DNA of 64,000 bases from Caldisericia bacterium (GTDB taxonomy: Bacteria; Caldisericota; Caldisericia; UBA6126): the NCBI GenBank assembly GCA_035363255.1, contig DAOSES010000006.1:25544-89543 (forward strand), read 5' to 3'. Positions 4,762-20,840 of this stretch are shown here, in pieces. Within the stretch, counting starts at the first letter, position 1. Every line of letters begins with the position of its first letter. The notes beneath the pieces are model-generated. The model worked only from the letters and a program-made list of their open reading frames with translations. It was not told the DNA's origin and ran no database searches. Made by a program: the position numbers and the translations under genes.

Positions 4762-6284
4762 TGAAACGTGTCCTCGCTTTCTGTTGTAAGATGGTTAATA
4801 TCCTTAATCCATTTACCATTAAACATGATTAATTCAGGGACAAGGGCAGGTAAACGGGAGGAAGGAATCGAAAATAAATCTTCTTTCAAAAAGAACATAT
4901 CAGCATAATTTCCAAGCTTTATCGCACCTTGAAACATCTGAGCTGATATACACTCCGCTCCAGCATGAGTATAACAATAAAAGGCCTTTTTTCGACTCAT
5001 AAAAGTTTCAGATGCTTGGATGTTTTTAAATGGATTAATGTCTTCAATTGGCGAATCTGTGGAAAGGGATACTTTAAGATTTTGATCGATCATCGCTTTA
5101 AAGGGATATGCTAATTTGTGAAAGCGTTGCTCAGAAAGACGTTTGATTGCCATTTCTTTGTCAGCATGATAAAAAATGCTTTGAATCGATAAATACAAAG
5201 ACAATTTGTTAATCAGATCAAGCTGTTGGGAGGATGCCATTTGCACATGGATCAAACGATGTTTCAGGTTTAGGTTGTTGATCTTACTGTTTTTAAAACT
5301 TTCAAGATAAACTTCTAATGCCTCATCGCCAATTACATGAAAAGCAGTCGACCATCCGCAGCGCTCTGATCTGTGCAAGATATCTTGTAATTCGTTCGAG
5401 GAATAGTATAAAACTCCTTTAGTCTTGGGTTCATCAGCATAAGGAGAGCTTAGGTAGGCACTTCTCCCCCCCAGAGAGCCATCCAATATGAATTTGAATG
5501 AGGAAAGGGATAGAAAGGGGGTACTTCGATAATAAAATGAGAGAGTATCGGGATTCATAATTTCTTGGTAGGAAAAGGGTGGAGAAAGATTAAGGTGTTC
5601 ATAAATACGCAAATCAGTTTGAGCATCCAAAAGAGATAGTAAGTGCTGTGCGCTTGATGTATTCCAGTCATCGGTATGAACTGATGAGATCCCATAGCTT
5701 TTACAAAGATTTGTAGCTTGCTCCAGACAATCTTGCAAATGCTTTTTGCTATACTTGATACAAGCTCTTGCAAAATCTAAAACTCTTTCTTTGATGACTC
5801 CTTCTTCCAAATTGCTTTCATCTACTTGATGAAACTTTTCCAACTTAAATAGCTCAATGGCTTTGGTATTTACATAGCCAATATGTCCACATTTTCCAAT
5901 CAGTAAAACAGGTCGTTGTGCTTCCAGTTTATCCAAACACAAACGATTCATCGTATATGGTAGCGAGTCAGGGATCCAACCGCGCAAACAAAGCGTTTCT
6001 TCATCAAGTTTTTTGAAGATTTCTTTTAGCTCCTCCATGCTACTCACAAGCTCCAGGGAGGGCTCGATAAGCTTTCTTCCAGTGCCGATCAAATGGCAAT
6101 GCGACTCGATAAAAGATGGATAAGCAAAATAAGCACTAAGGTCGATCCAAGGTTCTGCTTCTTGTTCGTTCAGATGTGAGTCTATTGCCTTGATCATGCT
6201 TTGCTCTATGCGAAGATCACAGCGCTTGAAGCTTTCTTCCAGAGGATCGTATATATTCACTTGTTTTATCAACATATGGCTCAT
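4758..6284 (-). CDS. Amidohydrolase-family metal-dependent hydrolase (TIM-barrel).
   Basis: Metal-ligand motif SHCHL near the N-terminus and HVIGDEA later. Start placed at MSHMLIKQ; the upstream extension of the ORF track lacks an RBS and reads as nonsense. Confidence 0.7.
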   Translation of the reverse strand: MSHMLIKQVNIYDPLEESFKRCDLRIEQSMIKAIDSHLNEQEAEPWIDLSAYFAYPSFIESHCHLIGTGRKLIEPSLELVSSMEELKEIFKKLDEETLCLRGWIPDSLPYTMNRLCLDKLEAQRPVLLIGKCGHIGYVNTKAIELFKLEKFHQVDESNLEEGVIKERVLDFARACIKYSKKHLQDCLEQATNLCKSYGISSVHTDDWNTSSAQHLLSLLDAQTDLRIYEHLNLSPPFSYQEIMNPDTLSFYYRSTPFLSLSSFKFILDGSLGGRSAYLSSPYADEPKTKGVLYYSSNELQDILHRSERCGWSTAFHVIGDEALEVYLESFKNSKINNLNLKHRLIHVQMASSQQLDLINKLSLYLSIQSIFYHADKEMAIKRLSEQRFHKLAYPFKAMIDQNLKVSLSTDSPIEDINPFKNIQASETFMSRKKAFYCYTHAGAECISAQMFQGAIKLGNYADMFFLKEDLFSIPSSRLPALVPELIMFNGKWIKDINHLTTESEDTFQ

Positions 6285-6417
6285 CCTGTATAAAAAATTT
6301 ATCTCATAAGCTATGGCTAATATTTTACAATTATCTGCTAATAAACTAAAATGAATATGCAAATAGGACGCAAAGTGTGAGTTTTTTTTCACAAGAATGC
6401 AGTAAAGCGAGGACACG

Positions 6418-7170
6418 ATGAAAGAATATGCTGAGTTGCTGAAAGAGTTTCTTAGTCTCGATACCGAACCAGTAGGAGTTAAACTTTTCAAAGACCGTAG
6501 CGAATGGAAGGGTTCACTCATCAAAACCAAAACCAATTTATGTCAAATGGTATCGATGAGTCGTTATCAGGGAAGCACTTGTGCACAGGTGGCTGAAGGA
6601 ATGATATGTGTTCTTGGTGCTTGTTGTTTAGGTTTAATCAAAACACCTACTCGATTTATCAATGGAGAAGCAGTGGTAGGAAAATACACTATCGATGCTG
6701 AAGTTGGCAAAAAATTCATCGAAAACACCTATATGCTGGGCAATCAAGGCAAATTGTATGACTTGGTTCTCACCGCTCCCCTAAAAACAATTGATGACCC
6801 TGATATCGTTGTGATATATACCAATCCTGCCCAAATACTTCCATTGGTGCATGCCTACATCTACGACACAGGAAACAAAATCGCTGCAGATACTGTTGCA
6901 GAAGCAGCTCTATGTGCTAGTCTTGCCTTTGCACATGGCGAGGACGCACCCATCATTGGTTTCCCTTGTGCCGGGGATAGACGCTTTGCTGGAACTCAAC
7001 ACCACGAGCTTCTTTTTGCCTTGCCTTCAAAACAGCTACCTCATTTGATCGAAAACCTTAAAATTAAACGTCAAGCCAACCCAAGGCTGTATCCTGTAGC
7101 TCCATCAATGCAATGGGTGCCCATGATGCCCCCAGCTTATACCCTAAGTGACGATGATTTGGTGGATTGA
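6418..7170 (+). CDS. Conserved hypothetical protein, possibly DUF169 family.
   Basis: 250 aa soluble protein. The N-terminus (MKEYAELLKEFLSLDTEPVGVKLF) resembles DUF169 proteins. Assignment is from memory only. Confidence 0.45.
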   Translation: MKEYAELLKEFLSLDTEPVGVKLFKDRSEWKGSLIKTKTNLCQMVSMSRYQGSTCAQVAEGMICVLGACCLGLIKTPTRFINGEAVVGKYTIDAEVGKKFIENTYMLGNQGKLYDLVLTAPLKTIDDPDIVVIYTNPAQILPLVHAYIYDTGNKIAADTVAEAALCASLAFAHGEDAPIIGFPCAGDRRFAGTQHHELLFALPSKQLPHLIENLKIKRQANPRLYPVAPSMQWVPMMPPAYTLSDDDLVD

Positions 7171-7768
7171 TTTTTTTAGTAATTTTCTGCTCTGTTTGTT
7201 TTTTTTGTATTTAATTTTACGCCCCTTGATTTTAAGAAAACCCTTTGTTTTGAGCAGTGCAGTTTACTGCTCTATGATCATGTTGGGTCTCTTGATTTTG
7301 TCGCTAAATGATTACATGGTTTTAAGCTCAGGTTCATGGAATAATGCATTTACTCATTGGAGAGGTTTTTTGTTTGTGCTAGGTTTTCCTTTATACCTAT
7401 TTTTAATACCACGAATCCGAAGAGAATTTTATGTATTCCATGTTTCTGAAAGTGTATTTAGGGAAAAAACTATAGCTTATCTGCGCCAAGCAAAAATACC
7501 ATACACCATCGATCCAGACAAATTAAGCATCAGATCGGAAAGTGACAACACTTTTGTTAGTTTTTATAATCCAACGATGCGATATGCTGTTTGGGTGTTC
7601 AATTCTTGCGATCTTGACCTTGTCAATGCAAGAAAACAACTTAAATATGAGCTATCCAAGGAAAAGCCTTATACTGGTTTTTCATGGCATGTGGTTTCAT
7701 TTTTCCTTATTTTCAGTATTCTACTTTTAAGAATGACGATGATGATTGTTCAGAAGGTAAACAGCTAA
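7148..7768 (+). CDS. Hypothetical integral membrane protein.
   Basis: Several hydrophobic helices. Start overlaps the stop of the upstream gene. Confidence 0.55.
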   Translation: MTMIWWIDFFSNFLLCLFFLYLILRPLILRKPFVLSSAVYCSMIMLGLLILSLNDYMVLSSGSWNNAFTHWRGFLFVLGFPLYLFLIPRIRREFYVFHVSESVFREKTIAYLRQAKIPYTIDPDKLSIRSESDNTFVSFYNPTMRYAVWVFNSCDLDLVNARKQLKYELSKEKPYTGFSWHVVSFFLIFSILLLRMTMMIVQKVNS

Positions 7769-7769
7769 G

Positions 7770-8216
7770 ATGAAAGATATTTTCAGCAATCCATGGCTTC
7801 TTGTGGCTTTGGCAAGTGGAATTATTGCTCAAGGGCTAAAAGTACCTATTCATTATATTCGAAAAAAAGAATGGGATATCAGTCTTTTTTTTAGCAATGG
7901 AGGCTTTCCGAGTTCACACACAGCCACCGTTCTTGCCCTAATTACCCGAGTAGGAAGAGATTTTGGTTTTGGTTCTCCTTTTTTTGCTATTAGTGCTGTT
8001 TTTGGAACTATCGTGATTTTCGATGCTACCGGAGTAAGGCAAGAAGTCGGCAGACATTCGAAAACCCTCAATGATATTCTTGAAATGTTAAAGCTGAGAG
8101 AAACACTCAATTTTGAAATTCTTGAGGAGTTGGTGGGACACACTGTTTTAGAGGTAATTGCGGGATTTTTTCTTGGAATCGGACTGGCTTTTCTTTCCTA
8201 TATGGTGTTTCCATAA
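7770..8216 (+). CDS. Divergent PAP2 / acid-phosphatase-vanadium-haloperoxidase-related membrane protein (DUF212).
   Basis: KVPIHYIRKKEWD...GGFPSSHTATVLAL motif characteristic of the DUF212 family. Confidence 0.75.
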   Translation: MKDIFSNPWLLVALASGIIAQGLKVPIHYIRKKEWDISLFFSNGGFPSSHTATVLALITRVGRDFGFGSPFFAISAVFGTIVIFDATGVRQEVGRHSKTLNDILEMLKLRETLNFEILEELVGHTVLEVIAGFFLGIGLAFLSYMVFP

Positions 8217-8219
8217 GGC

Positions 8220-8660
8220 TTACTGTTCGGGCAAGCCAATAAGGTGTAAAAAACCAAGACTTGCCAAAGTAACGATGATACCTGCAAGACAAACTCCAAG
8301 TAGAATCATGAGCAAGGCTGTGCCTTTGGATAATCTTAAAATCCAAGCTAAAAGCGAACCAGTCCAGGCACCTGTTCCTGGAAGGGGAATGGCTACTAAT
8401 AGAAGCAAACCCATATATCCAAAACGAGATATCCATGAGGCTTTTTGCATGGGCTTAGAGGTAAAGAGCTTCCACTTTCGTAAAAAAGGCAATCGATCAA
8501 ATCCATATAAAATAATTAGGGGTGGTATCATATTCCCCAATAATGATAGTACAAATACGATCAACCAGTGCATACGATGAAGACCTATTCCAAAGGGAAT
8601 AGAAACTCGTAATTCCCCAACAGGTGTCATCGCCAATAAAAAGATCGTTACTGCATCCAT
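8220..8660 (-). CDS. Putative small multidrug export protein family (COG2426) membrane protein.
   Basis: 146 aa, 4 TM helices, PVGELRVSIPFGIG...PLPGTGAWTG motifs. Confidence 0.65.
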   Translation of the reverse strand: MDAVTIFLLAMTPVGELRVSIPFGIGLHRMHWLIVFVLSLLGNMIPPLIILYGFDRLPFLRKWKLFTSKPMQKASWISRFGYMGLLLLVAIPLPGTGAWTGSLLAWILRLSKGTALLMILLGVCLAGIIVTLASLGFLHLIGLPEQ

Positions 8661-8766
8661 AGTTACTCAAGATAATACAAATTTTGCTAAATAATGCAAA
8701 TCAGCAAAGGCTCGTTTCTATGCGGACGTTGTGTTTCAGCTTTTTTTTGTTATAAAACCTAGCAGG

Positions 8767-10380
8767 ATGGAATATTTTATGAATGAGTTTGTACTTTTGT
8801 TTACTATTTTATTTGTTGGATATAGTATTGGAAAGTGGTCTTTTAAGGGTATCTCTCTCGGAAGCACTGCAATATTAATTATCTCCTTATTGTTTGGCTA
8901 TTTTGGCTTTACGCTTTCCCATGAAATCATGGAACTTGGTTTGATTTTGTTTGTCTATTCCGTTGGCATCAGCGTTGGTGCAAGATTTTTCAGATCGTTT
9001 CGCAAAGAAGGATGGAAATACGTATTACTCGGGATTGCAGGTCCAAGTTTTGGCGCCCTGAGCGTATTTCTTCTTGCAGGTTTTTTTCATCTTCCGTTTG
9101 ATCTTGCCACAGGCCTCTATACTGGATCATTAACCAACACCCCTGCCCTTGCAGGTGTTCTTGATACCTTGACTCGAACCTCTCCTGACAAAATGGCAAA
9201 CGTTTCAAGCGCTTATGGAATAGCTTATCCTTTTGCTATGATAAGCCTTGTATTAATGAATCAGGTACTACCTCGCTTCAAAGGAGTTAACCTCAAAAAG
9301 GAAGAAGAAAACTTTAACAAAAGCGAGGAAGCATGGAGTTGTCCCCTAAGCATCCAACAATATAAAATCACCAATCCAGCTTGTTGGGGGAAAAGCATTG
9401 CTGAGATCAATCCCAACAGGATGATTTCAGCCAATTTTTCATGTGTTATCCGAAAAAAAACCATCATTCCCGCTAATTCAAACTTACATCTTGAAGAGGG
9501 CGATATTGCGCGAGTGGTTGGATCAGAAGAAGAGCTTAACAAAATGGGACTTCTTTTAGGGCAACAACACACTATGGAAGAGTTTACGTCCAAAGATTAC
9601 AATTTTATTGATGTTAAGATTCTAAACAAAAAATATACAGGCAAAAAAATTCAGGATATCCCCCTTTGGTCCAAGTATGAAGTTGTAATAACCCGAGTCC
9701 GGAGGAGTGATGTTGAGTGGTCCCCCAAGGGATCTCTTGTGCTGGAATGGGGCGATAGTCTTCGTATAGCCGGTATGGAACAAAACTTAAAACCCCTTGC
9801 CAAGGAAATCCAGGGCGATCTTAAACAATTGGAAGAAACCAACCTTATTCCATATTTTGCAGGATTATTGCTTGGAATTGCATTAGGATCCATTCGAGTC
9901 CCTCTGGGTTCGCAACTTCATTTGAGCCTCGGAAGTGCTGGGGGTGCTTTTTTGGTCAGCTTAATGCTTGGGCATATTGGCAGAATACGGTCCATTCCTT
10001 TCTATGTTCCCCCTGCTGTTAAGCATTTTTCAAGAGAATTCGGACTCTTACTTTTTTTAGCTGGAGCTGGTACCATGGCAGGATCCAGGATCATGCCCAT
10101 ACTGAAAAGTCAAGGTATATCCTTGTTGTTGCTTGGAGCTTTACTGACTATCATGGTAGTCTCAGTCAGTTTTATCCTTGCTCGTAAAGTGTTTAAACTC
10201 AACATATCAGCAACGATGGGTGCACTAAGTGCAATCATGACCAATCCACCTGCTTTGTCTTCTGCTCAAGCAAAAACAGATTCAGTCGAACCTTTACTGA
10301 ACTATGCAAGCATTTACCCCATAGCTTTAATAAGCAAAATTGTCTTAGCTCAAGTGTTGATTTTTTTGTTAGGGAAATAA
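8767..10380 (+). CDS. AAE-family (AspT/YidE/YbjL-type) duplicated transporter with central TrkA-C (RCK_C) domains.
   Basis: Two homologous membrane halves separated by two soluble segments of roughly 80 aa (IARVVGSEEELNKMG; LRIAGMEQNLKPL). Start may be 8731, 8767 or 8779. Confidence 0.75.
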   Translation: MEYFMNEFVLLFTILFVGYSIGKWSFKGISLGSTAILIISLLFGYFGFTLSHEIMELGLILFVYSVGISVGARFFRSFRKEGWKYVLLGIAGPSFGALSVFLLAGFFHLPFDLATGLYTGSLTNTPALAGVLDTLTRTSPDKMANVSSAYGIAYPFAMISLVLMNQVLPRFKGVNLKKEEENFNKSEEAWSCPLSIQQYKITNPACWGKSIAEINPNRMISANFSCVIRKKTIIPANSNLHLEEGDIARVVGSEEELNKMGLLLGQQHTMEEFTSKDYNFIDVKILNKKYTGKKIQDIPLWSKYEVVITRVRRSDVEWSPKGSLVLEWGDSLRIAGMEQNLKPLAKEIQGDLKQLEETNLIPYFAGLLLGIALGSIRVPLGSQLHLSLGSAGGAFLVSLMLGHIGRIRSIPFYVPPAVKHFSREFGLLLFLAGAGTMAGSRIMPILKSQGISLLLLGALLTIMVVSVSFILARKVFKLNISATMGALSAIMTNPPALSSAQAKTDSVEPLLNYASIYPIALISKIVLAQVLIFLLGK

Positions 10381-10971: not shown

Positions 10972-11382
10972 ATGAAGCGATTGACGAGTTATGAAGAAAT
11001 CAGAGAAGCTTTAAGCGAAATGGACAAAGAGTCAAGCTCCGACGAAATGGATGCAGTAATGGAAGCTGTGCACGAGCAAATCGAAAATCCTGTAGCGTCC
11101 ACCTTAAAAAATTATATGGATGCTGTGTATGACGTGATCGACGAACAAGCTCCCGATTGGGTGGATTACATCGACTTTGCTCTTTACCTATCCGATATTG
11201 CCAACGAAGAAGAAGACTATTTCCAAGTATATCAAACCGATTCTGGCTATTGTGTAGTTTACGAGGATATGGACGAAGACGAAGAAGATGACGACGACGA
11301 CGAAGAAGAATGGGACGAAGACGAAGAAGACGATGAAGAAGCATGTTGCGATGAATGCAACTGCAATGGAGCTTGCGGATAG
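10972..11382 (+). CDS. Small, extremely acidic protein with a Cys-rich C-terminal tail (ACCDECNCNGACG).
   Basis: Strong RBS (AGGAG, 6 nt spacer). About 40 % D/E in the last 50 residues, then 5 Cys in 12 aa. No recognisable family. Confidence 0.6.
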   Translation: MKRLTSYEEIREALSEMDKESSSDEMDAVMEAVHEQIENPVASTLKNYMDAVYDVIDEQAPDWVDYIDFALYLSDIANEEEDYFQVYQTDSGYCVVYEDMDEDEEDDDDDEEEWDEDEEDDEEACCDECNCNGACG

Positions 11383-11397
11383 TATCATTCTGATCCC

Positions 11398-12591
11398 ATG
11401 AGCAGTGATTCCTTCAATGCCCCGGTAGGGTATATTCAGAGCCTCCGGGGTATTGCTCTTTTATCTGTGCTTGGCATCCATACTCTCAGTTTTTTTTCTG
11501 AAGCCAAACTGAGCTACCCCTTAATCAGAGTCTTAGTGTATCTTTTGCTCGTATTCATTGTTGCAGTTCCACTCTTTGTTTGGATATCAGGATTTGTATT
11601 AGCGTTGCGTTATTTTTCACAGCTGGATGTCAAAGCTTTTTTTCGTCGCAGATTCAGCACTATCATACCTTCCTATTTGATGTTTTCTGTAATTTACACC
11701 GTTTTTTCAGCGTTTGACCCACAGAGTTACACTTGGAGCTTTCCAAATCTTCAAACTTTCCTGGTATTGTTGTTCACTGGTTCATCCTACAGTCATTTGT
11801 GGTTTATTCTTTTGCTTATTCAGTTTTACTTACTTTTTCCCCTCCTATGTAATGCAAAGGTGAAAGCATCGCTTTTGAAGCATAGTATGGCTTGGATTGC
11901 AGGCGCTTTTATCCTACAAACTTTATGGCAGTTGTTTGTTCCAATCTTAGCGTCAAGCCTGTTTTTTGGCAGCACCTATGGCAAGCCAATCATCCTGCTG
12001 ATATCTCGTTCTTTTCCAGCATATTTGGGCTTTTTTATTTGTGGAATGGTGATGGGAGCCAGCTACAAGAAGCAGGATCAGCCAAGAAATTACCCCAAGA
12101 TCATAACATGGCTTCTGGCATTGCTTGTATTCACGGGTTTATTTCTGATATGCATGCAATGGTTACAGGGGATTCACCAGTATGGGTCAATATATGCCAC
12201 TACTGAATCTCACCGATGGATAGAAAAAGTCCTTTTCCCCATAGTATATCTTTCCATGATACTTCTTTGTCTCAGGCTTGCAGTTTCAAATCCAACGAAA
12301 GGAAAACTTAACGCAATACTCCATTTTTTAGGAGATCGCTCCTTTGGGGTTTACCTTCTTCATGCTGGAGTGCTGATATCTTTAGCACATCTTCTGAAAA
12401 TGATGGGAATCACTACCAGGCAAAGCCTGTTCTACGTACTTCTTTTTTCTGGCACCTTGAGTTTCAGCCTTCTACTTGAAGAAGTAATGGCACGGATACC
12501 CTTGCTATCGTGGATGATTGGAAGAAAAGTTAAAAATCCTTCCCCTTTTCCAACTCTTTTTCCCAAATCTGACCCGAAGTCTTGTGAGTGA
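11398..12591 (+). CDS. Acyltransferase-3 family (OatA-like) integral membrane O-acyltransferase.
   Basis: About 10 TM helices and an LRGIALLSVLGIHT motif near the N-terminus. Confidence 0.8.
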   Translation: MSSDSFNAPVGYIQSLRGIALLSVLGIHTLSFFSEAKLSYPLIRVLVYLLLVFIVAVPLFVWISGFVLALRYFSQLDVKAFFRRRFSTIIPSYLMFSVIYTVFSAFDPQSYTWSFPNLQTFLVLLFTGSSYSHLWFILLLIQFYLLFPLLCNAKVKASLLKHSMAWIAGAFILQTLWQLFVPILASSLFFGSTYGKPIILLISRSFPAYLGFFICGMVMGASYKKQDQPRNYPKIITWLLALLVFTGLFLICMQWLQGIHQYGSIYATTESHRWIEKVLFPIVYLSMILLCLRLAVSNPTKGKLNAILHFLGDRSFGVYLLHAGVLISLAHLLKMMGITTRQSLFYVLLFSGTLSFSLLLEEVMARIPLLSWMIGRKVKNPSPFPTLFPKSDPKSCE

Positions 12592-12994
12592 TGCGAAGCA
12601 TTACTTTTTGGTAAGAGTCCAAAACAGGAAATTTTATCAAAAACGCTCTTTGACCGGCACTATCAGAGGTTTCTTCTGTGCTGGGATAAAGGAGGCTTGC
12701 ATTCGATGTTTCATCCAGTGATATCAGTGTAAATGAATAGCTGGATATAAGATCTGCATTCATAGGTCTGATTTTGCATATTGCTTGATCTTTTTCTGTA
12801 GTCAGCTCAAGATACTCAAATTCCAAGGGAGCAAAAGCACCCAAACTGCCACATCCACCCTTACCGCCACCTTCACCGTTACCACCCCCACAAGCTTCAT
12901 CGTTGCAGGCTAAGTTTTGATTTGAGCAGGCAAAATGGAAAGACAGCAAAACGAGCAAAATCATCGAGACATATAGTTTAACAACTTTTTTCAT
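12530..12994 (-). CDS. Hypothetical secreted or lipoprotein with a Gly/Cys-rich N-terminal region.
   Basis: Signal peptide MKKVVKLYVSMILLVLLSFHFAC. ATG overlaps the bioY stop (ATGA). Its 3' end overlaps the acyltransferase 3' end by 62 nt. Confidence 0.55.
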   Translation of the reverse strand: MKKVVKLYVSMILLVLLSFHFACSNQNLACNDEACGGGNGEGGGKGGCGSLGAFAPLEFEYLELTTEKDQAICKIRPMNADLISSYSFTLISLDETSNASLLYPSTEETSDSAGQRAFLIKFPVLDSYQKVMLRITHKTSGQIWEKELEKGKDF

Positions 12995-13593
12995 TCATGA
13001 TCTCCTTCATCGAGGGAACATTCCATCGTTAAGACTTTTTTATACTTTAACAACAACAAACGAACCAATAATATTTTCAATATATCCAAGGGGAGATAGG
13101 GCACAAAGCCAAGCAATAAAGCTTTTGAAAAAGAAATCTGAGTGAGGATGGCTAAATAGGAAACCCCACAAGCGTAAATAATCAACAAACCCATGATAAG
13201 CGAAAACAGCATGTTTCTTTTGCTTAGTGCTCCCATTAGGGGCATGGCTATTAAAAAACCAAAAAGGTAGCCACCGGTGGGTCCAACGAGCATATGCAAG
13301 CCTCCATGCATCCCAGAAAACACAGGCAAGCCTATAGATCCCATCAAAAGATACAAAAGGATAGCGGCAAAAGCTCCAGAACTACCGAGAATAAAGGGGC
13401 AAAGCAAAACAATGAGCAATTGAAAGGTAAGCGGAACAGGGCTAAAAGGCAGAGGGATAGTTATCCACGCCCCAATAATCATTAATGACACTAACAATGA
13501 GATTTGCAGCCAGCGACGAAGAGAAAAAAAACTATAATTGCTGCAGTTTTCAGATCCTGTGTCGGTATCAGGCTGTGAAGGCTGGGATAACAT
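12991..13593 (-). CDS. bioY: BioY biotin transporter, ECF S-component.
   Basis: BioY signature LHMLVGPTGGYLFGF; 5-6 TM helices. Confidence 0.85.
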   Translation of the reverse strand: MLSQPSQPDTDTGSENCSNYSFFSLRRWLQISLLVSLMIIGAWITIPLPFSPVPLTFQLLIVLLCPFILGSSGAFAAILLYLLMGSIGLPVFSGMHGGLHMLVGPTGGYLFGFLIAMPLMGALSKRNMLFSLIMGLLIIYACGVSYLAILTQISFSKALLLGFVPYLPLDILKILLVRLLLLKYKKVLTMECSLDEGDHE

Positions 13594-14767
13594 GAAGTTC
13601 CTCTGTTAATTCATAATGGAGTTGCATAGGGATAAAGCCCTTGCTATGGGCCAAACGTGCCTCATCATCATCTTTAACGCGGCGTATTTTATCTTGCTGA
13701 TCTTTCAAACCTAACTCATCCACAAAAGCATCAATCATGCCAGCAGGGCAGGCATAGACAAAGAGATGACCTTCCACAGTGGCAAAAATGGGATTAAACT
13801 CGATACAGGGAATTCCCAGACGATCTGATATTTTTAACATCCCTGCTTCCCGAAGTTTTTTAACAAAAAGCTGACGTGCAGGCAATGATCTTGAAAGAAC
13901 CTTGCTGATTTCTTCAAACAAAAGCGGAACAGTAGCGGTTTGCAAAGTACGGGTAACATCCAGTCTAAACCACCAGAGATCGTAGCTCAACAAAGCATCG
14001 CGCTTAGCCACCTTGCTCATTTTACCCACATACATGTTGCGAACATATAATTCATTGGGATAATCAAAGATACAAGAAGGCTTGCTCGGGCTGCCTGGTT
14101 GATCTTCATAATGTTCTTCTGCAATGGTGGTACCTTCCAATAGGGGGTTCCAAAAACGTACTAAAGGAAGCAAATCGATTCGATTGAGTGGTGAAGATTT
14201 AATACGAATTTTAGTACCTTCTATGGTGCTGTTGGTTTTTCCTAAAACAACAAAAAAAGTTCCTTGTCGAGTTTCAGGTGATAGCACTATATGGTAGGCA
14301 TCGTTACGAGCAAAAAGTGTTACGGGGATTTGATGAGCTACCAGATGAGTAGCAGCAAGTTTCAATCCTTCACCATAATAGCCACGCATCCAACTTTCTT
14401 TGGTGACGCCACCCATTCGAAAAGCGTCCAGCGTAATCCCTCGACCATTATCTTCAATCCAAAGCGTGTTCCCTTCCTGCCGAGTTTGAGCTGATGGCTT
14501 TCCAGAAACCAGTTCTGTTTCATCCAGAGCATTTTGTATAAACTCTCTCATGGCAATCATGTGAGAAAATTCTCTTCTCAAGACGTACTCAGGGGAAAAA
14601 CCCAGAGGTAATATTCCATGAAAAGTAAGGTCGGGATTGTTTTCACAGAGTCTTTCCCACGAAGAGGCAGAAAAAACTCCTTTCTCAAGGGCTTCTTCTT
14701 TGGTCATCGCCAAAGCAGCTAAAGTTTCAGGGATTTGAAAAGCTTCAACAAATTCTTTTCTGTTCAT
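13568..14767 (-). CDS. Orphan GHKL-superfamily (MutL/MORC-like Bergerat-fold) ATPase, function unknown.
   Basis: Motif I EFIQNALDE, motif II IEDNGRGI and motif III GYYGEGLKLAA, with MutL-like spacing. No histidine-kinase H-box, no TM segment, and the protein is only 399 aa. Confidence 0.6.
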   Translation of the reverse strand: MNRKEFVEAFQIPETLAALAMTKEEALEKGVFSASSWERLCENNPDLTFHGILPLGFSPEYVLRREFSHMIAMREFIQNALDETELVSGKPSAQTRQEGNTLWIEDNGRGITLDAFRMGGVTKESWMRGYYGEGLKLAATHLVAHQIPVTLFARNDAYHIVLSPETRQGTFFVVLGKTNSTIEGTKIRIKSSPLNRIDLLPLVRFWNPLLEGTTIAEEHYEDQPGSPSKPSCIFDYPNELYVRNMYVGKMSKVAKRDALLSYDLWWFRLDVTRTLQTATVPLLFEEISKVLSRSLPARQLFVKKLREAGMLKISDRLGIPCIEFNPIFATVEGHLFVYACPAGMIDAFVDELGLKDQQDKIRRVKDDDEARLAHSKGFIPMQLHYELTEELHVIPAFTA

Positions 14768-14778
14768 TTCCTATCCTT

Positions 14779-15672
14779 TCAAAGCACTATGCTTTTTTTT
14801 ATGTATTGGGCACTCGGACTGACAGCCAAACCGCCCATGGAGGTTTCTTTCAAGGAGCAGGGCATTAAATTGCCAATTTGCGCCATAGCATCAATCACCT
14901 CATCCAGAGGAATCAGGGTGGGGATTCCAGCCAATGCCATTTCAGCACAAGCCAGAGCATTGCTAGCCCCCATCACATTGCGCTTAACGCAGGGTAGCTC
15001 AACTCTTCCAGCTACCGGGTCGCATACCAGGCCCAGGATATTTTTTAACGCAAAAGCTGCAGCACTTTCCACCATGGAAGGTTCGCCTCCCATCAAATAT
15101 ACCAAAGCACCAGCACTCATAGCACTCGCAGAACCAACTTCAGCTTGACATCCATGGGTAGATCCCGATAACGAAGCTCGAAGGGCTATGATTTCTCCAA
15201 TTCCTCCTGCCACAAATAATGATTTTACCAATTCTTCGTCTGTTTTGCCATGGTTTTCTGCAATCGTTATCAAGACCCCAGGCATAACTCCACAAGCGCC
15301 AGCCGTAGGTGCTGCAACGATACGACCCATACATGCGTTTAGCTCCGAAACCGCTAAAACTCGACTTATCATGAGAGAGAAGTTTTTGCTTAGCAATGAA
15401 GCACCTTTTTGAGTAAATTGTTTCATGTGAAACGCTCCACCCTTTATTAATCCGCTTTTTGTCCGATTAGGCTCTTGTAGTCCTCTTTCGATGGATTCTC
15501 TCATAATGGTTAGATGATGATGCATTTTCCCTATCAATTTTGCTTCTGATATTTCAGTATTTTTGGCTTCGTAGCTCAGAAAAAAGTCGTAAAGATCAGG
15601 CAATGCCAAATCTTTCATTTGTTTGATAACATCAGCCCAGGCTTTGATGCGGATGCGTTTTGGTAAAGTCAT
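14779..15672 (-). CDS. sdaAA: L-serine dehydratase (Fe-S dependent), alpha subunit.
   Basis: AAPTAGACGVMPGVL and SLSGSTHGCQAEVGSASAM motifs. ATG overlaps the beta-subunit stop (TAATG). Confidence 0.9.
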   Translation of the reverse strand: MTLPKRIRIKAWADVIKQMKDLALPDLYDFFLSYEAKNTEISEAKLIGKMHHHLTIMRESIERGLQEPNRTKSGLIKGGAFHMKQFTQKGASLLSKNFSLMISRVLAVSELNACMGRIVAAPTAGACGVMPGVLITIAENHGKTDEELVKSLFVAGGIGEIIALRASLSGSTHGCQAEVGSASAMSAGALVYLMGGEPSMVESAAAFALKNILGLVCDPVAGRVELPCVKRNVMGASNALACAEMALAGIPTLIPLDEVIDAMAQIGNLMPCSLKETSMGGLAVSPSAQYIKKSIVL

Positions 15673-16343
15673 TATATGTCTTCTTTCCAACGAGGGACAG
15701 CTACAGCAGTATAAATGCCCTCTTTGTTTTTCAGAATTTCCATAAGGGTTTCAGGAACAGGAGTATCCAGTTTGAGTACTGCCAGAGCTCGTTCTTCAAT
15801 AGCATCTCGCGAAATCTGCATGTAAGCTATATTGATAGTATTTTTAGCCAGCAAATCGCCCACAAAAGCCACCATTCCGCAAGTGTCACGATACTCCAAT
15901 ATCAGAAGGTCGTGCTTACCCGAAAACTCGACCTTGTTATGGTTGATGTCCACAATTTTTGCATGCCCTCCGCCGATGGATATTCCACTGATGGTAAAAG
16001 GGTTTTGCTGATGCTGTTGGATCGTGATGGTGACGTAATTTGGATGTTTTTCAGGATCTTCCAAAAAAGTAAAATTAACTTCTATGCCCTCTTTTTTAGC
16101 TATTTCAAGGGCATTAGGGATGCGTTCGTCATCCATGGAAAAACCAAGCAAACCCCCTACCAAGGCATGCTGAGTGCCATGACCAGGGCCAGTATCTGCA
16201 AACGAATTGTACAGGCATATGCTTACTTTGTTAAATGGCTGGTGATAGACATTTCGAGCCAAAAGACCTATTTTGGCAGCTCCAGCCGTATGCGAGCTCG
16301 AAGGACCAATCATGACCGGGCCAATTACATCAAAAATCGACAT
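15672..16343 (-). CDS. sdaAB: L-serine dehydratase, beta subunit.
   Basis: N-terminus MSIFDVIGPVMIGPSSSHTAGAAKIG. C-terminal ACT-like domain. Confidence 0.9.
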   Translation of the reverse strand: MSIFDVIGPVMIGPSSSHTAGAAKIGLLARNVYHQPFNKVSICLYNSFADTGPGHGTQHALVGGLLGFSMDDERIPNALEIAKKEGIEVNFTFLEDPEKHPNYVTITIQQHQQNPFTISGISIGGGHAKIVDINHNKVEFSGKHDLLILEYRDTCGMVAFVGDLLAKNTINIAYMQISRDAIEERALAVLKLDTPVPETLMEILKNKEGIYTAVAVPRWKEDI

Positions 16344-17222: not shown

Positions 17223-17856
17223 GAGCCACCGCAGTCATATATACCGGAAGTTCAGGAAAAGTTTTGTTGATTGCTTTTTTGCAGGCATGAAGAGTACTGC
17301 CCGATGTAAAGACATCATCGAGCAACAATACCGATGCTGGCTGAAAGGAGGAGAAAAGGGGAGCTTTTGCAGTAAAAGATAAAGAGGGATTTTTCATACG
17401 CTCCTGAGTTCTTAAGCCTTTTTGCTCTCGATCCTGCAGGCTGAAATCCTTATATAGAAGCTTTGAATATAGAGGCAAACCCGAGCAGACATGAAAACTT
17501 TGAGCAAGCAGTTCGACGGGTTGATATTTTCGACGAAACAATCGGTGCACCGAGCTGGGAACAGGCACAATAATGCTTTTCTGCCAGGGGTAATAGGCTT
17601 GAATGGTTTTCCAGAGTTCCTGTGCAAAAAAACGGGAAAGATGAAACGCCTTGCGATATTTGAACTTCAACATCAAATCCCGGGTCAGATCTACATAGTG
17701 AAAAGCAAACATGACCCAATCGCCCATAGGAGTTTGGCGAAGCGGAAGGATACAACGCGCTTTGTCCAGTTGGTCCGAGCAAGTAGGACAAGCTTGATAG
17801 GCTCGAGAGGTTTCGTTGAGGCAAATCGGACAAAGAGGGCTCATTTCAGCGAACAA
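17215..17856 (-). CDS. ComF-family protein: N-terminal double zinc ribbon plus phosphoribosyltransferase domain.
   Basis: CPICLN...CPTC zinc ribbon and PRTase motif LLLDDVFTSGSTL. Confidence 0.8.
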   Translation of the reverse strand: MFAEMSPLCPICLNETSRAYQACPTCSDQLDKARCILPLRQTPMGDWVMFAFHYVDLTRDLMLKFKYRKAFHLSRFFAQELWKTIQAYYPWQKSIIVPVPSSVHRLFRRKYQPVELLAQSFHVCSGLPLYSKLLYKDFSLQDREQKGLRTQERMKNPSLSFTAKAPLFSSFQPASVLLLDDVFTSGSTLHACKKAINKTFPELPVYMTAVAHG

Positions 17857-20768
17857 ACAAAATCCTCCAGGTCCTTTTGATTGAGACTATTTCTTTCTTC
17901 CAGCTCCTTCAATGCACTTTGATACGAAACCGGGCTTTGGGCATAGGTCGAAAAAGCTTGAAGCTGAGTGTTCATTTCATCCTCCGTAGCACCTTTTCGC
18001 CAGGCATGGCTCAAAGATAGTTGCTCGCAGAGGGCAGCCACCTTGGGGTCATAAATAATGGGCAAAATCGGCTTGCTCAGGCGGGAGAGAAAAACCAGAA
18101 AATGCAAACGCATCCCCACGCCAAAGCTGGCTCGAGACAAAAGAGAAAACATCTCTTCTGGCAAAAGGAAGGTATCTACCAGGTAGGCAGGCTGTTTCAT
18201 CAGCTCCATGACCTTGCGGGAAAAACGACTGTCGTAGGTGCCATAAAAGGGCGTAAAAACACAGGGTTTTCCGCTCAGTTGGCTCAATTCGTCCAGACAA
18301 CGTGCAAAAGTTTCTATTTTGCTGGAAGTTTCCCGGCTGGGTCCCAGCGACACGGCAATAAAGTCCTGATAGGCGGGATAGGGATCCTGCACTTTCTGTG
18401 CCTGGTATGAAAAAATAGGATCCACCGTGAGTTGGCTTTTGCGAATTCCCCAGGAATGTAATAGATCTTGAGAATGCTGATCTCGCACGCTGATTTTGCT
18501 GGCTCGTGCCAGGATTAGTTTGGATAAACCACGATTTAAAGGCGAATGCAGGGGGCCAATCCCATTAGCATATACAAAAACACGCTTGCCCATCAGACGG
18601 GATAAAGCGATGATTCCAAGATAATACCAGGGGCTTTTGAGACTCGTCACATCCTGGATCAGACCTCCCCCGCCACTGATAATGCCATCTGCCCGAGAGA
18701 GCTCCTTCCAAAGAGAGCCCAGGGCAAAACGCTGGCTGGAATAGACTTCGGCAAGGGTGGTGGTCATGTGGGGGTTGATCGAAAGCACTGAGATTTGAAA
18801 GGTTTCGGCATGGGACAAGGAGTGCAAGTCTTTGATCAGGGTTTGAAGGATAGTTTCGTCGCCGATGTTTCCATAGCCATAATAGCCCGATATCAAGATC
18901 CTACGAAGGGGTGAACGAAGAGCTTTTTTCATCCTCAGCAAGTCGGGCACTGTTTTCAGAAAACGACGCAAGCGAAGGCGAGGTTGGCTCAGAATGCGGT
19001 AGAGCCATTCGAGGTTGAGCTTCAAAGCCCATCCTGGGGCGCGCTTCATTTGACCCGCCCACAAGTCGAGACTTCCGCCCACTCCCATAGCCACTTTCAC
19101 TTTTAAGCTTTGTTTGTGGCGATGGATCAAGCAATCTTGCTTGCCAGCTCCCATGCCTACCAGAAGGAGGTCGGCTTTGCTGGCGTTGATGCTTTGGATG
19201 ATCCCCGATTCTTCAGCTTCATCAAAGAAACCATGATGCGTTCCGGCAATAAGCAGGCGAGGGAAGCGTTCTAATAGGTTTTTTCTTAGCAAGTCGAGGC
19301 TGGCTTCACTGGTGCCCAGAAAAAAGATCTTCCACTGCTGAATTTCAGCACGCTTTAAAAGCTCTTCTCCCAGCTCTACTCCAGCAACCTTTTCGCTGAT
19401 GTATTCCCCCATCCATCGGGCAAGCTTCAAAATGCTTATTCCATCAGGCACCACCAAGTCAGCTTCCTCGATGCTTTGCCTGAAAGAGGCTTCTTTCTGA
19501 GCACGAGAGATCATCTCCAGATTGATAGTGATGATTTGATGACAGCTTTGACCCTGCATCCATTGGTCAATTCGGGGCAAAAGGTCTTTCATGGAAAGAT
19601 TATCCACTGGAAGACCCTTCATAAATATGCGATCTTTTTTAAGTTTTCGATACAAAAGGGCAGTTTTTTCCACCATGCGATCCTGGGTAAAAAAGCGACG
19701 CACCATTTGCGCTCCATTTTCGGCTAGAGCTTTGCGTTGATCAGGATTTTGGCTCAGAGCTATGATCGCCTTAACCAGCTCCTCCTGTTGGGAAAGAATG
19801 CGTCCGTTGTAGCGGTCCAGCAAGAGCTCCTGGATGCCTCCCACTTTTTTTGAAACCACCACCCGTTTGGCATTCATACATTCGAGCAGAGCTATTCCGA
19901 GAGCCTCCGATTTGGGCGAAAACAGCATCAAGTCGCAGGCAAAGATATAGGGGCGAGGATTTTTTTGAAAACCCACCCAGCGCAGGTGATCGGCTATGCC
20001 AAGGTCTTGAGCAAGCTTTTTCAAACTGGTTTCCTCTTGGCCTCCTCCAATAATCAGCAGGTATAAAGCTTGCTTGGATTGCTTCAAGCAGGCAGAGAAA
20101 ATTCGTAGCATTTCGTCGTAGCCCTTCACCTTGACCAAACGCCCCAAAGAGCCAAGCACAAAGGCATCCTGAGGGAGCTTCCACTCCTTGCGAATCGTTT
20201 CTCGAGAAGCCTTTTCGTAGGCTTCATCCGGGGCAAGAAAGTCCACCCCATTTTTGATGATAGTGATTTTGTCGCGATCAATGCCACGACGTTCCAATTG
20301 GGTGGCTATTTCATACGAAACCGCAATAAAATGATTGCTTCGGTGCAGGCTCAACTGGTCGATCAGGGTAAAGAGGAGCCCCACCAGGATATTTTGATAG
20401 TCATAAAAGGGATGACTATGATAGGTGGTGATCAAAGGCAGAGAGGAACGGTAAAAAGCCAGACGACCATACATATTGGCTTTCAAGCCATGGGTGTGGA
20501 TAATGTCGAGACGATGTTCTCCGGCCCAGGCATGGATGGCCTTGAATATGCGAGGGTCGGCTTTAGACCTCAGAGGATAAGCAGTAAAATGCACCCCTTC
20601 AAGCTTTTCGACCGAGTGGGACAGCGCACCTTCGCCCAAAGAAAAAAAGTAGCAAGCAATGCCTTGATCCGCCAAGCGTGAAAGGAGGGCCAAAATATGC
20701 GTCCGAGCTCCTCCAGCATCGCCACCATCTGCAACAAAGCCAATTCGTCTTACCACTCGTTCATTCAT
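17841..20768 (-). CDS. Tri-domain cell-wall glycan enzyme: GT4 glycosyltransferase, WecB/TagA/CpsF (GT26) glycosyltransferase, and polysaccharide pyruvyl transferase (CsaB-like).
   Basis: An N-terminal segment of about 390 aa with GT-B fold motifs. The middle has VVPDGISILKLARWMG...VGMGAGKQD (WecB/TagA family). The C-terminus has ISGYYGYGNIGDE...MRLHFLVF (PS_pyruv_trans). Start is ATG 20766-20768 (975 aa) or GTG 20786 (981 aa). Confidence 0.75.
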   Translation of the reverse strand: MNERVVRRIGFVADGGDAGGARTHILALLSRLADQGIACYFFSLGEGALSHSVEKLEGVHFTAYPLRSKADPRIFKAIHAWAGEHRLDIIHTHGLKANMYGRLAFYRSSLPLITTYHSHPFYDYQNILVGLLFTLIDQLSLHRSNHFIAVSYEIATQLERRGIDRDKITIIKNGVDFLAPDEAYEKASRETIRKEWKLPQDAFVLGSLGRLVKVKGYDEMLRIFSACLKQSKQALYLLIIGGGQEETSLKKLAQDLGIADHLRWVGFQKNPRPYIFACDLMLFSPKSEALGIALLECMNAKRVVVSKKVGGIQELLLDRYNGRILSQQEELVKAIIALSQNPDQRKALAENGAQMVRRFFTQDRMVEKTALLYRKLKKDRIFMKGLPVDNLSMKDLLPRIDQWMQGQSCHQIITINLEMISRAQKEASFRQSIEEADLVVPDGISILKLARWMGEYISEKVAGVELGEELLKRAEIQQWKIFFLGTSEASLDLLRKNLLERFPRLLIAGTHHGFFDEAEESGIIQSINASKADLLLVGMGAGKQDCLIHRHKQSLKVKVAMGVGGSLDLWAGQMKRAPGWALKLNLEWLYRILSQPRLRLRRFLKTVPDLLRMKKALRSPLRRILISGYYGYGNIGDETILQTLIKDLHSLSHAETFQISVLSINPHMTTTLAEVYSSQRFALGSLWKELSRADGIISGGGGLIQDVTSLKSPWYYLGIIALSRLMGKRVFVYANGIGPLHSPLNRGLSKLILARASKISVRDQHSQDLLHSWGIRKSQLTVDPIFSYQAQKVQDPYPAYQDFIAVSLGPSRETSSKIETFARCLDELSQLSGKPCVFTPFYGTYDSRFSRKVMELMKQPAYLVDTFLLPEEMFSLLSRASFGVGMRLHFLVFLSRLSKPILPIIYDPKVAALCEQLSLSHAWRKGATEDEMNTQLQAFSTYAQSPVSYQSALKELEERNSLNQKDLEDFVCSLK

Positions 20769-20840
20769 ACCCCAAAAGTATAGCACAGCATAGCGTAAAA
20801 AAGCACAAACAAACTATTGTTATAGATACATTGATTCATA

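Follow-up and report, generated by a model that had tools for sequence, protein, structure and literature searches.

A family of short GHKL ATPases with relatives in phages and mobile elements, represented in a Caldisericia bacterium

Introduction

We have analyzed an ATPase gene on the minus strand of a stretch of DNA of 64,000 nucleotides (hereafter called the window) from a Caldisericia bacterium, contig DAOSES010000006.1. The gene encodes a protein with the motifs of the GHKL superfamily, and lies between genes for L-serine dehydratase and bioY. Comparison of the protein with its relatives indicates that it belongs to the cellular branch of a GHKL clade of phages and mobile genetic elements, in which a zincin motif is present in most of the longer proteins. 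It is very probably an active ATPase of a new family that is functionally unrelated to sda or bioY. Taken whole, our best explanation is that of a soluble and catalytically competent ATPase of GHL type, from a family of ~400-amino-acid proteins, that acts as a clamp or switch and whose gene context is incidental; we judge this to have slightly better than even prospects of being right. What is observed is that the motifs for ATP binding and hydrolysis are intact, that the protein has a Bergerat fold, that it is constrained along its whole length and that it has no fixed partner gene.

Results

The ATPase domain and the regions that follow it

The gene and the elements of its product are listed with their positions in the window.

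13568-14767, minus strand: complete open reading frame (ORF) of the GHKL ATPase, 399 amino acids and stop, taken from the ORF list, with an ATG start.
14594-14767, minus strand: N-terminal region, residues 1-58, short helices and one strand; candidate dimerization strap.
14183-14593, minus strand: Bergerat-fold (GHKL) ATP-binding domain, residues ~59-195.
14522-14545, minus strand: motif I, E75-F-I-Q-N79-A-L-D82, with candidate catalytic Glu and Mg-binding Asn.
14435-14452, minus strand: motif II, D106-N-G-R-G-I, aligning with DNGCGI of MutL and DDGRGIP of GyrB.
14360-14383, minus strand: motif III and end of the ATP lid, G129-Y-Y-G-E-G-L-K136.
14213-14218, minus strand: motif IV, G184-T185.
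13931-14182, minus strand: middle region, residues 196-279, VRFWN ... LYVRNMYVG ... SYDLWWFRLDVTR.
13949-13987, minus strand: signature S261-Y-D-L-W-W-F-R-L-D-V-T-R273, in which S261-W266, D270 and R273 are invariant.
13571-13930, minus strand: C-terminal alpha/beta domain, residues 280-399.
13754-13774, minus strand: E332-G-H-L-F-V-Y338, invariant motif of the C-terminal domain.

Conservation was assessed in an alignment of 37 sequences across phyla, with a mean column identity of 66%. Residues E75, Q78, N79, A80 and D82 of motif I are invariant, as are D106, G108 and G110 of motif II, G129, G132, G134 and K136 of motif III, and both residues of motif IV; motif III is preceded by the further invariant residues K123, W126 and R128. 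The four motifs, of the forms ExxxN, DxGxG, GxxGxG and GT, lie on an alpha/beta sandwich, as is characteristic of the GHKL superfamily. An earlier, sequence-only reading of this DNA had identified the first three of them, and these survive the alignment with the key residues unchanged. It had also described their spacing as MutL-like. The motifs are indeed GHL-type in form, but the segment linking motifs II and III, the ATP lid, is not as long as in MutL and HtpG, both of which show insertions there when aligned using hhalign.

Conservation extends over the full length of the protein, and its peak falls not within the ATPase domain but in the middle region, at residues ~230-277, with the consensus PSxIFDxPxxLYxRNMYxGxMSxVxKRxxLLSYDLWWxRxDxSR. 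The middle region that contains this block is poorly modeled, with predicted confidence (pLDDT) values of 45-65 in two independent runs. Such values would fit a segment whose ordering depends on dimerization, nucleotide or a partner, but they are not evidence for such behavior. The N-terminal region is moderately conserved, and AlphaFold2 models residues 1-60 with pLDDT of 89-95. The C-terminal domain gave no structural (fold) match and no significant Pfam match, and no HExxH motif is found in the protein. The protein is acidic (pI 5.9), and lacks a hydrophobic segment of membrane-spanning length, the maximum Kyte-Doolittle value over 19 residues being 1.34. It is soluble, and its earlier description as a small protein without a transmembrane segment holds.

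Members of the family in Bacteria and Archaea

The window protein has no Pfam match at the gathering score, and none in NCBIfam, PADLOC or the sequences of the PDB, the last searched with both the single sequence and a profile. The earlier placement outside the characterized GHKL families is thus upheld, since no profile library assigns it to one, and a literature search found no description of a GHKL family of ~400 amino acids. A search of 5.8 billion proteins gave at least 213 matches at E ≤ 0.001 among 8,000 candidates. The 120 of these 213 that were listed are ~340-440 amino acids in length (most 397-416), with query coverage of 85-100% and identity of 42-93%. None of the 120 has a precomputed Pfam domain, and their only names are 'hypothetical protein' and 'ATP-binding protein'.

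When one genome for each of 185,579 species was scanned, at least 37 loci of the family were found, a lower bound because the scan relied on two peptide patterns. The hosts are Caldisericota, Thermodesulfobacteriota, Nitrospirota (Thermodesulfovibrionales), Thermoproteota (Bathyarchaeia), Methanobacteriota, a Korarchaeote and Desulfofundulus. Caldisericota have members at 75-79% identity in the lineage of the window, and more distant ones at 41-51%. A neighbor-joining tree largely tracks taxonomy, with an archaeal group, a Thermodesulfobacteriota clade, three Caldisericota lineages and two Nitrospirota paralog clades, one of which groups with Archaea and the other with Thermodesulfobacteriota. 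A single metagenome-assembled genome (MAG), Thermodesulfovibrionales Yes46-09, carries both paralogs (loci L020 and L029), one placed with Thermodesulfobacteriota and the other nearer Archaea. In the Thermoproteota MAG PSS.bin.16 (L033, ~8001-9053) the ortholog is broken into ORFs of 229 and 154 amino acids, by a frameshift, as a pseudogene or through an assembly error. An unannotated ORF of 416 amino acids near the family member at L058 was considered as a possible paralog and rejected, with a probability of 0.38%.

Selection on the gene was estimated by comparison with its ortholog in L005 (amino-acid identity 93%). The ratio of nonsynonymous to synonymous substitution rates (dN/dS) was 0.034, compared with 0.085 for the adjacent sdaAA, 0.056 for sdaAB and 0.163 for bioY. 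We also looked for the core family in viruses and plasmids. No relative was found in IMG/VR and no tblastn match in GenBank phages, while plasmids gave just short, motif-level matches; a viral location of the core family was therefore rejected on these searches. The gene is a functional cellular one under strong constraint.

Relatives in phages and mobile elements

A profile search that was exhaustive over 1.84 billion cluster representatives identified 726 proteins (E ≤ 0.001). Once the core family is set aside, the highest-ranking are proteins of 600-900 amino acids, aligned over profile positions ~36-300 with E values of 1e-56 to 1e-30. These are followed by proteins of ~450-530 amino acids, and then by proteins of ~1,100 amino acids with three GHKL repeats; several of the wider relatives exceed the threshold of HATPase_c_3. 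Ninety longer relatives keep the four Bergerat motifs, with motif I conserved and motif IV in the form 'GT.v.i', together with a pre-motif Y...R.W, the block LYVRD.YV and a counterpart of the signature, FSYNLW.V.L...R ('fsYNLw.v.L...R' with less conserved positions in lower case). The lid lysine is near-invariant in these proteins (K..W.RG.FGEGLK), and across the clade the lid reads 'K..w.RG.fGEGlK'. Because the residues conserved in the 90 relatives span both parts, the GHKL domain and the ~100 residues that follow it, up to the signature S-Y-[DN]-L-W...R, constitute one inherited module. The N-terminal region is also present in some long relatives, which match from profile position 4-6.

A single HExxH motif occurs in 66 of 80 relatives of 600-900 amino acids, in most of them ~180-250 residues past the shared module and inside a segment FIHELxHA...DLTENF..ALA.VG. 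Such proteins are unnamed, examples being P0126, P0132 and, from Methanodesulfokora washburnensis, P0152. The part that they have in common with the window protein is profile positions ~36-300, but they differ from it in possessing an extra region of ~250-300 amino acids with FIHELxHA...DLTENF. The HExxH region gave weak SprT-like, DUF6782 and PHROG 'peptidase' matches, which favor a zincin-type peptidase although none is significant alone, and has no relative in the PDB, so that the zincin label rests on the motif. Some long forms (P0130, P0132, P0151 and P0208) also match the C-terminal domain of the window protein, and the ~400-amino-acid family therefore looks like a long form that lacks the peptidase. 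Two contexts of long forms were inspected. Both contigs are packed with small ORFs on the same strand without Pfam matches, and look like virus or plasmid.

Other architectures were noted. Proteins of ~1,100 amino acids (P0165, P0172, P0192, P0196 and similar) have three tandem GHKL domains in an arrangement reminiscent of sacsin, P0165 matching phrog_6077 at 1e-104 and HATPase_c_3 at 2e-24. P0186 (451 amino acids) combines the GHKL module with Kelch repeats at its C-terminus. A distant relative of 459 amino acids in Desulfofundulus sp. (L045, 3790-5169) is found among Imm70, HTH, Fic/DOC, DUF6927 and ArdC-N genes, surroundings that look like a conjugative element or conflict island.

In PHROGs the window protein matches phrog_6077 (E 2.7e-13, residues 54-252) and otherwise gives a weak topoisomerase II match. 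With the hhalign alignment given below, which runs past the Bergerat fold to the S-Y-x-L-W signature, this places the protein in the phrog_6077 clade, and nine relatives also match this group. For relative P0183, 73 phage records were matched, nearly all named 'hypothetical protein'. The phrog_6077 proteins include ORF34 of Pseudomonas phage vB_PaeS_PAO1_Ab18 (363 amino acids), whose gene has a DNA ligase gene on one side and genes for hydrolase and exonuclease on the other, and NVP1122A_56 of Vibrio phage 1.122.A (389 amino acids), encoded near methylase and holin genes. These are similar in size to the window protein, and share with it the Y..R.W pre-motif, motif I, a K...G.FGEG.KLA lid, the LYV block and S-[FY]-D-L-[AW]-W. 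They differ in being phage-encoded, among early and DNA-metabolism genes, and the identity is just ~22%.

Alignment of the family profile with Ab18 ORF34 using hhalign gave 96.8% probability over residues 57-283, with SFDLAW of the phage protein matching SYDLWW. The middle region is therefore common to the family, the long relatives and ORF34, while the C-terminal domain lies outside the alignment and motif II of ORF34 is degenerate, unlike that of the window protein. Foldseek searches of BFVD gave full-length matches (E ~1e-10) to uncharacterized phage proteins of 307-437 amino acids. They also gave weaker structural matches to proteins like rIIA of phage T4, with E values of 1e-5 to 1e-3. 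The rIIA protein has an N-terminal GHKL domain and a variable C-terminal region of unknown role (PMC7824862). Both rIIA-like proteins and the window family are poorly understood phage-associated GHKL groups, but the rIIA proteins have 640-900 amino acids whereas the window family is cellular and ~400 amino acids long. Membership of the rIIA group was rejected, with no rIIA PHROG match for the window protein or nine relatives.

These relationships raise the question of whether the protein is a domesticated viral or mobile-element gene that is active in virus-host conflict, either as a decoy or regulator of the GHKL-zincin proteins or as a remnant of counter-defense. Its nearest relatives outside the family are borne by phages or mobile elements, and the family occurs patchily across Bacteria and Archaea at 40-50% identity. 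The divided affinities of the two Nitrospirota clades point the same way, and some members lie near insertion sequence (IS) elements. However, searches of IMG/VR and GenBank phages did not reveal the core family, its chromosomal positions are stable within lineages, purifying selection on it is stronger than on adjacent metabolic genes, and PADLOC reveals no defense-island signature. We consider a role in such conflict unlikely. The sequence-only reading had pointed to defense contexts for small ATPases of this kind, and for this family the suggestion fares poorly in the face of the empty PADLOC result, the absence from IMG/VR, a tree that largely follows taxonomy and the very low dN/dS.

Comparison with known GHKL classes

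Could the protein be a DNA-clamping ATPase like MORC or MutL, functioning in defense or gene regulation? Its homology to MutL, GyrB and HtpG stops after motif III in hhalign alignments. The N-terminal 400 residues of GyrB align over 56 columns (66.3% probability) and residues 1-460 of HtpG over 77 columns (45.3%), and the C-terminal half of the window protein has no fold match. No transducer, S5 or middle domain was recognized in the window protein, and unlike the GHL ATPases it has no Toprim, endonuclease or Hsp90 C-terminal domain. In MutL the S5-fold transducer is part of a homologous region of ~330 N-terminal amino acids and is followed by a C-terminal dimerization and endonuclease domain; neither was recognized in the window protein, which ends at residue 399. 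At this length it also lacks the middle and C-terminal dimerization domains of Hsp90 and HtpG. Nor was a transducer with QTK-type loop recognized, or the Toprim domain or A subunit that goes with it in GyrB, ParE and Topo VI-B, and no topoisomerase A gene recurs among its neighbors at 46 loci.

MORC proteins are defined by GHKL and S5 domains that form one ATPase module (PMC2292703). In the window protein HATPase_c_3 falls below the cutoff and an S5 domain was not detected. The association of MORC and paraMORC proteins with restriction-modification (R-M) and defense is also lacking as a rule; PADLOC was empty, and one inspected context has a type I R-M system, the others being housekeeping. 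The window protein would therefore not be specifically MutL- or MORC-like, and we regard a DNA clamp of this type as quite unlikely. The sequence-only reading had it as an orphan relative of MutL and MORC. That family label is not supported, while the transducer and endonuclease domains that the same reading recorded as absent were not detected here either.

A protein kinase of histidine-kinase, PDK/BCK or anti-sigma type, phosphorylating an unlinked substrate, would share the Bergerat fold, but the details speak against it. The motif forms ExxxNAxD and GxxGxGxK that are present here as motifs I and III are those of GHL proteins, unlike the N and G2 boxes of kinases. There is no DHp domain or H-box, in agreement with the earlier reading. 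The N-terminal 58 residues form short helices and a strand, and the sole invariant histidine, H334, is located downstream of the ATPase domain. Alignments with histidine kinases extend over just ~100 residues, compared with 175-200 for Hsp90, MORC and topoisomerase, and genes for response regulators, sigma factors or anti-anti-sigma factors do not recur nearby at the 46 loci. Such a kinase we find very unlikely.

The gene neighborhood

The immediate surroundings of the ATPase gene in the window are listed here.

14774-14778, minus strand: Shine-Dalgarno-like AAGGA, read from the sequence, within the 11-nucleotide gap between the sdaAA stop and the GHKL gene.
14779-14781, minus strand: stop codon of sdaAA.
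14779-15690, minus strand: sdaAA, L-serine dehydratase alpha subunit, upstream neighbor (Pfam SDH_alpha 4.8e-78, TIGR00718 4.7e-86).
12991-13593, minus strand: bioY, downstream neighbor (Pfam BioY 5.6e-38).

The beta subunit of L-serine dehydratase is encoded upstream by sdaAB (TIGR00719 6.2e-62). The start of bioY overlaps the stop of the GHKL ORF by 26 nucleotides, an overlap that recurs in L005 and L007. The tight packing between sda and bioY described earlier is thus real, but the overlap is confined to the downstream junction, the upstream genes being separated by 11 nucleotides. Scans for promoters and terminators across the gene run were not above shuffled expectation, and scans of the window for Rfam families and tRNA were empty.

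Besides the window, the order sdaAB-sdaAA-GHKL-bioY occurs in relatives with 75-93% identity, whose flanking DNA is likewise syntenic over >15 kb to either side. A different arrangement is seen in the clade next in similarity (~50% identity), with the GHKL gene between a divergent enoyl-CoA hydratase gene and a same-strand rplS-lepB-rnhB-NERD-yraN run; in three loci of this clade (L055-L057, GHKL gene at 6001-7215) it is 65-82 nucleotides upstream of that run. In L055-L057 there are genes resembling AbiEii or HEPN/nucleotidyltransferase toxin-antitoxin systems a few kilobases downstream. Deltaproteobacterial members lie near HU, IS elements, a Mu-like transposase or a type I R-M system, with one among unannotated genes. 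By inspection, a hisC-like aminotransferase and a small protein recur beside one Nitrospirota paralog clade, and MoeA-like and helicase-like genes near Thermoproteota members; these recurring lineage-specific neighbors were judged to be ordinary housekeeping genes from reading of the sequences, not by Pfam. All-against-all clustering of ORFs from the 46 loci revealed no conserved neighbor beyond close relatives.

The operon context therefore carries no functional signal, because sda-GHKL-bioY is kept just where the whole region is syntenic. Moreover, the gene run in the window is not a pathway operon because its other genes are functionally mixed, with a glycosyltransferase fusion, a ComF-like protein and a HAD hydrolase in addition to sda and bioY. 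The placement appears to be a lineage-specific local accident without meaning for serine or biotin metabolism. The earlier reading had described the sda-bioY context as unexplained by known GHKL families and proposed examining its conservation in relatives; in the ~50%-identity clade the neighbors are quite different.

It is accordingly highly improbable that the protein is a partner of its operon neighbors, for example as a regulator or maturation factor for the Fe-S L-serine dehydratase or for the BioY transporter: although the 11-nucleotide gap and 26-nucleotide overlap are kept in the window, L005 and L007-L009, and Pfam SDH_beta gave a very weak match to the C-terminal domain (E 0.27), the adjacency is confined to the syntenic region, with unrelated neighbors in other Caldisericota and all other phyla, and the mixed run is no pathway operon. 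That the C-terminal domain is related to the beta chain of serine dehydratase was rejected when hhalign against SdaAB of the window gave a probability of 0.12%. The sda and bioY context should not be used to infer the function of the GHKL protein in the window.

Some other genes of the region were noted. An ORF of 154 amino acids (12530-12994, minus strand), whose product is hydrophobic and signal-like at the N-terminus and has a Gly-rich stretch, GGGNGEGGGKGGCG, shares a 4-nucleotide overlap with the stop of bioY; L005 has a counterpart and L007 does not. On the plus strand, 10972-11382 encodes a very acidic protein of 136 amino acids that contains a tandem repeat rich in D and E (11272-11341) and is Cys-rich at the C-terminus, CCDECNCNGACG; the gene is kept beside an acyltransferase gene in Caldisericota relatives. 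The gene for a fusion protein of 981 amino acids (17841-20786, minus strand), whose ortholog has GT4 glycosyltransferase, WecG/TagA and polysaccharide pyruvyl-transferase domains, has a local GC content of 0.49 compared with ~0.41 for the window.

Discussion

We return to the explanation that we favor, that of a GHL-type ATPase acting as a clamp or switch. By analogy with GyrB, MutL, Hsp90 and MORC, the binding of ATP would close the short lid and promote dimerization via the N-terminal 58 residues. The invariant middle block might then act like the transducer loops of those proteins, with R273, which is conserved clade-wide, as a candidate sensor of the gamma phosphate. The block would relay the state of the nucleotide to the C-terminal domain, which could hold or release a client. 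On this basis the protein would be an ATP-gated clamp or switch acting on a conserved protein or nucleic acid. In the long relatives the same ATPase module may gate a zincin protease, with the short family keeping just the ATP-gated binding. We offer this mechanism tentatively, and would give it somewhat less than an even chance.

A broader proposal is that the ~400-amino-acid family is an offshoot, domesticated and without the peptidase, of a GHKL-zincin clade of viruses or mobile elements, and is now a strongly constrained cellular factor in a few anaerobic lineages of Bacteria and Archaea. It would have a nucleotide-sensing block of its own (S-Y-D-L-W-W...R) together with a C-terminal domain without a recognized fold, and would form a new functional class among GHKL proteins. 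Its members could act on a conserved client as an ATP-dependent chaperone or clamp, or else serve as host decoys against viral GHKL-proteases. As a complete account this is rather unlikely to be correct.

GHKL ATPases drive changes in DNA topology, mismatch repair, protein folding, chromatin silencing and signaling, and the classes have been defined by the parts joined to their ATPase domains. In this family the ATPase domain is followed by a block under strong conservation and then by a C-terminal domain, neither of which matches anything known. The family is constrained above the level of adjacent metabolic enzymes and is present in both Bacteria and Archaea, and among its relatives are phage proteins, in a large set so far undescribed, as well as apparent GHKL-zincin fusions. 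We consider the finding to be of moderate interest because of this unusual conservation, the occurrence in both prokaryotic domains and the link to a large undescribed clade of phages and mobile elements. Identifying the client of any one member would provide annotation for hundreds of hypothetical proteins, and might bring to light a protease system coupled to a GHKL ATPase.
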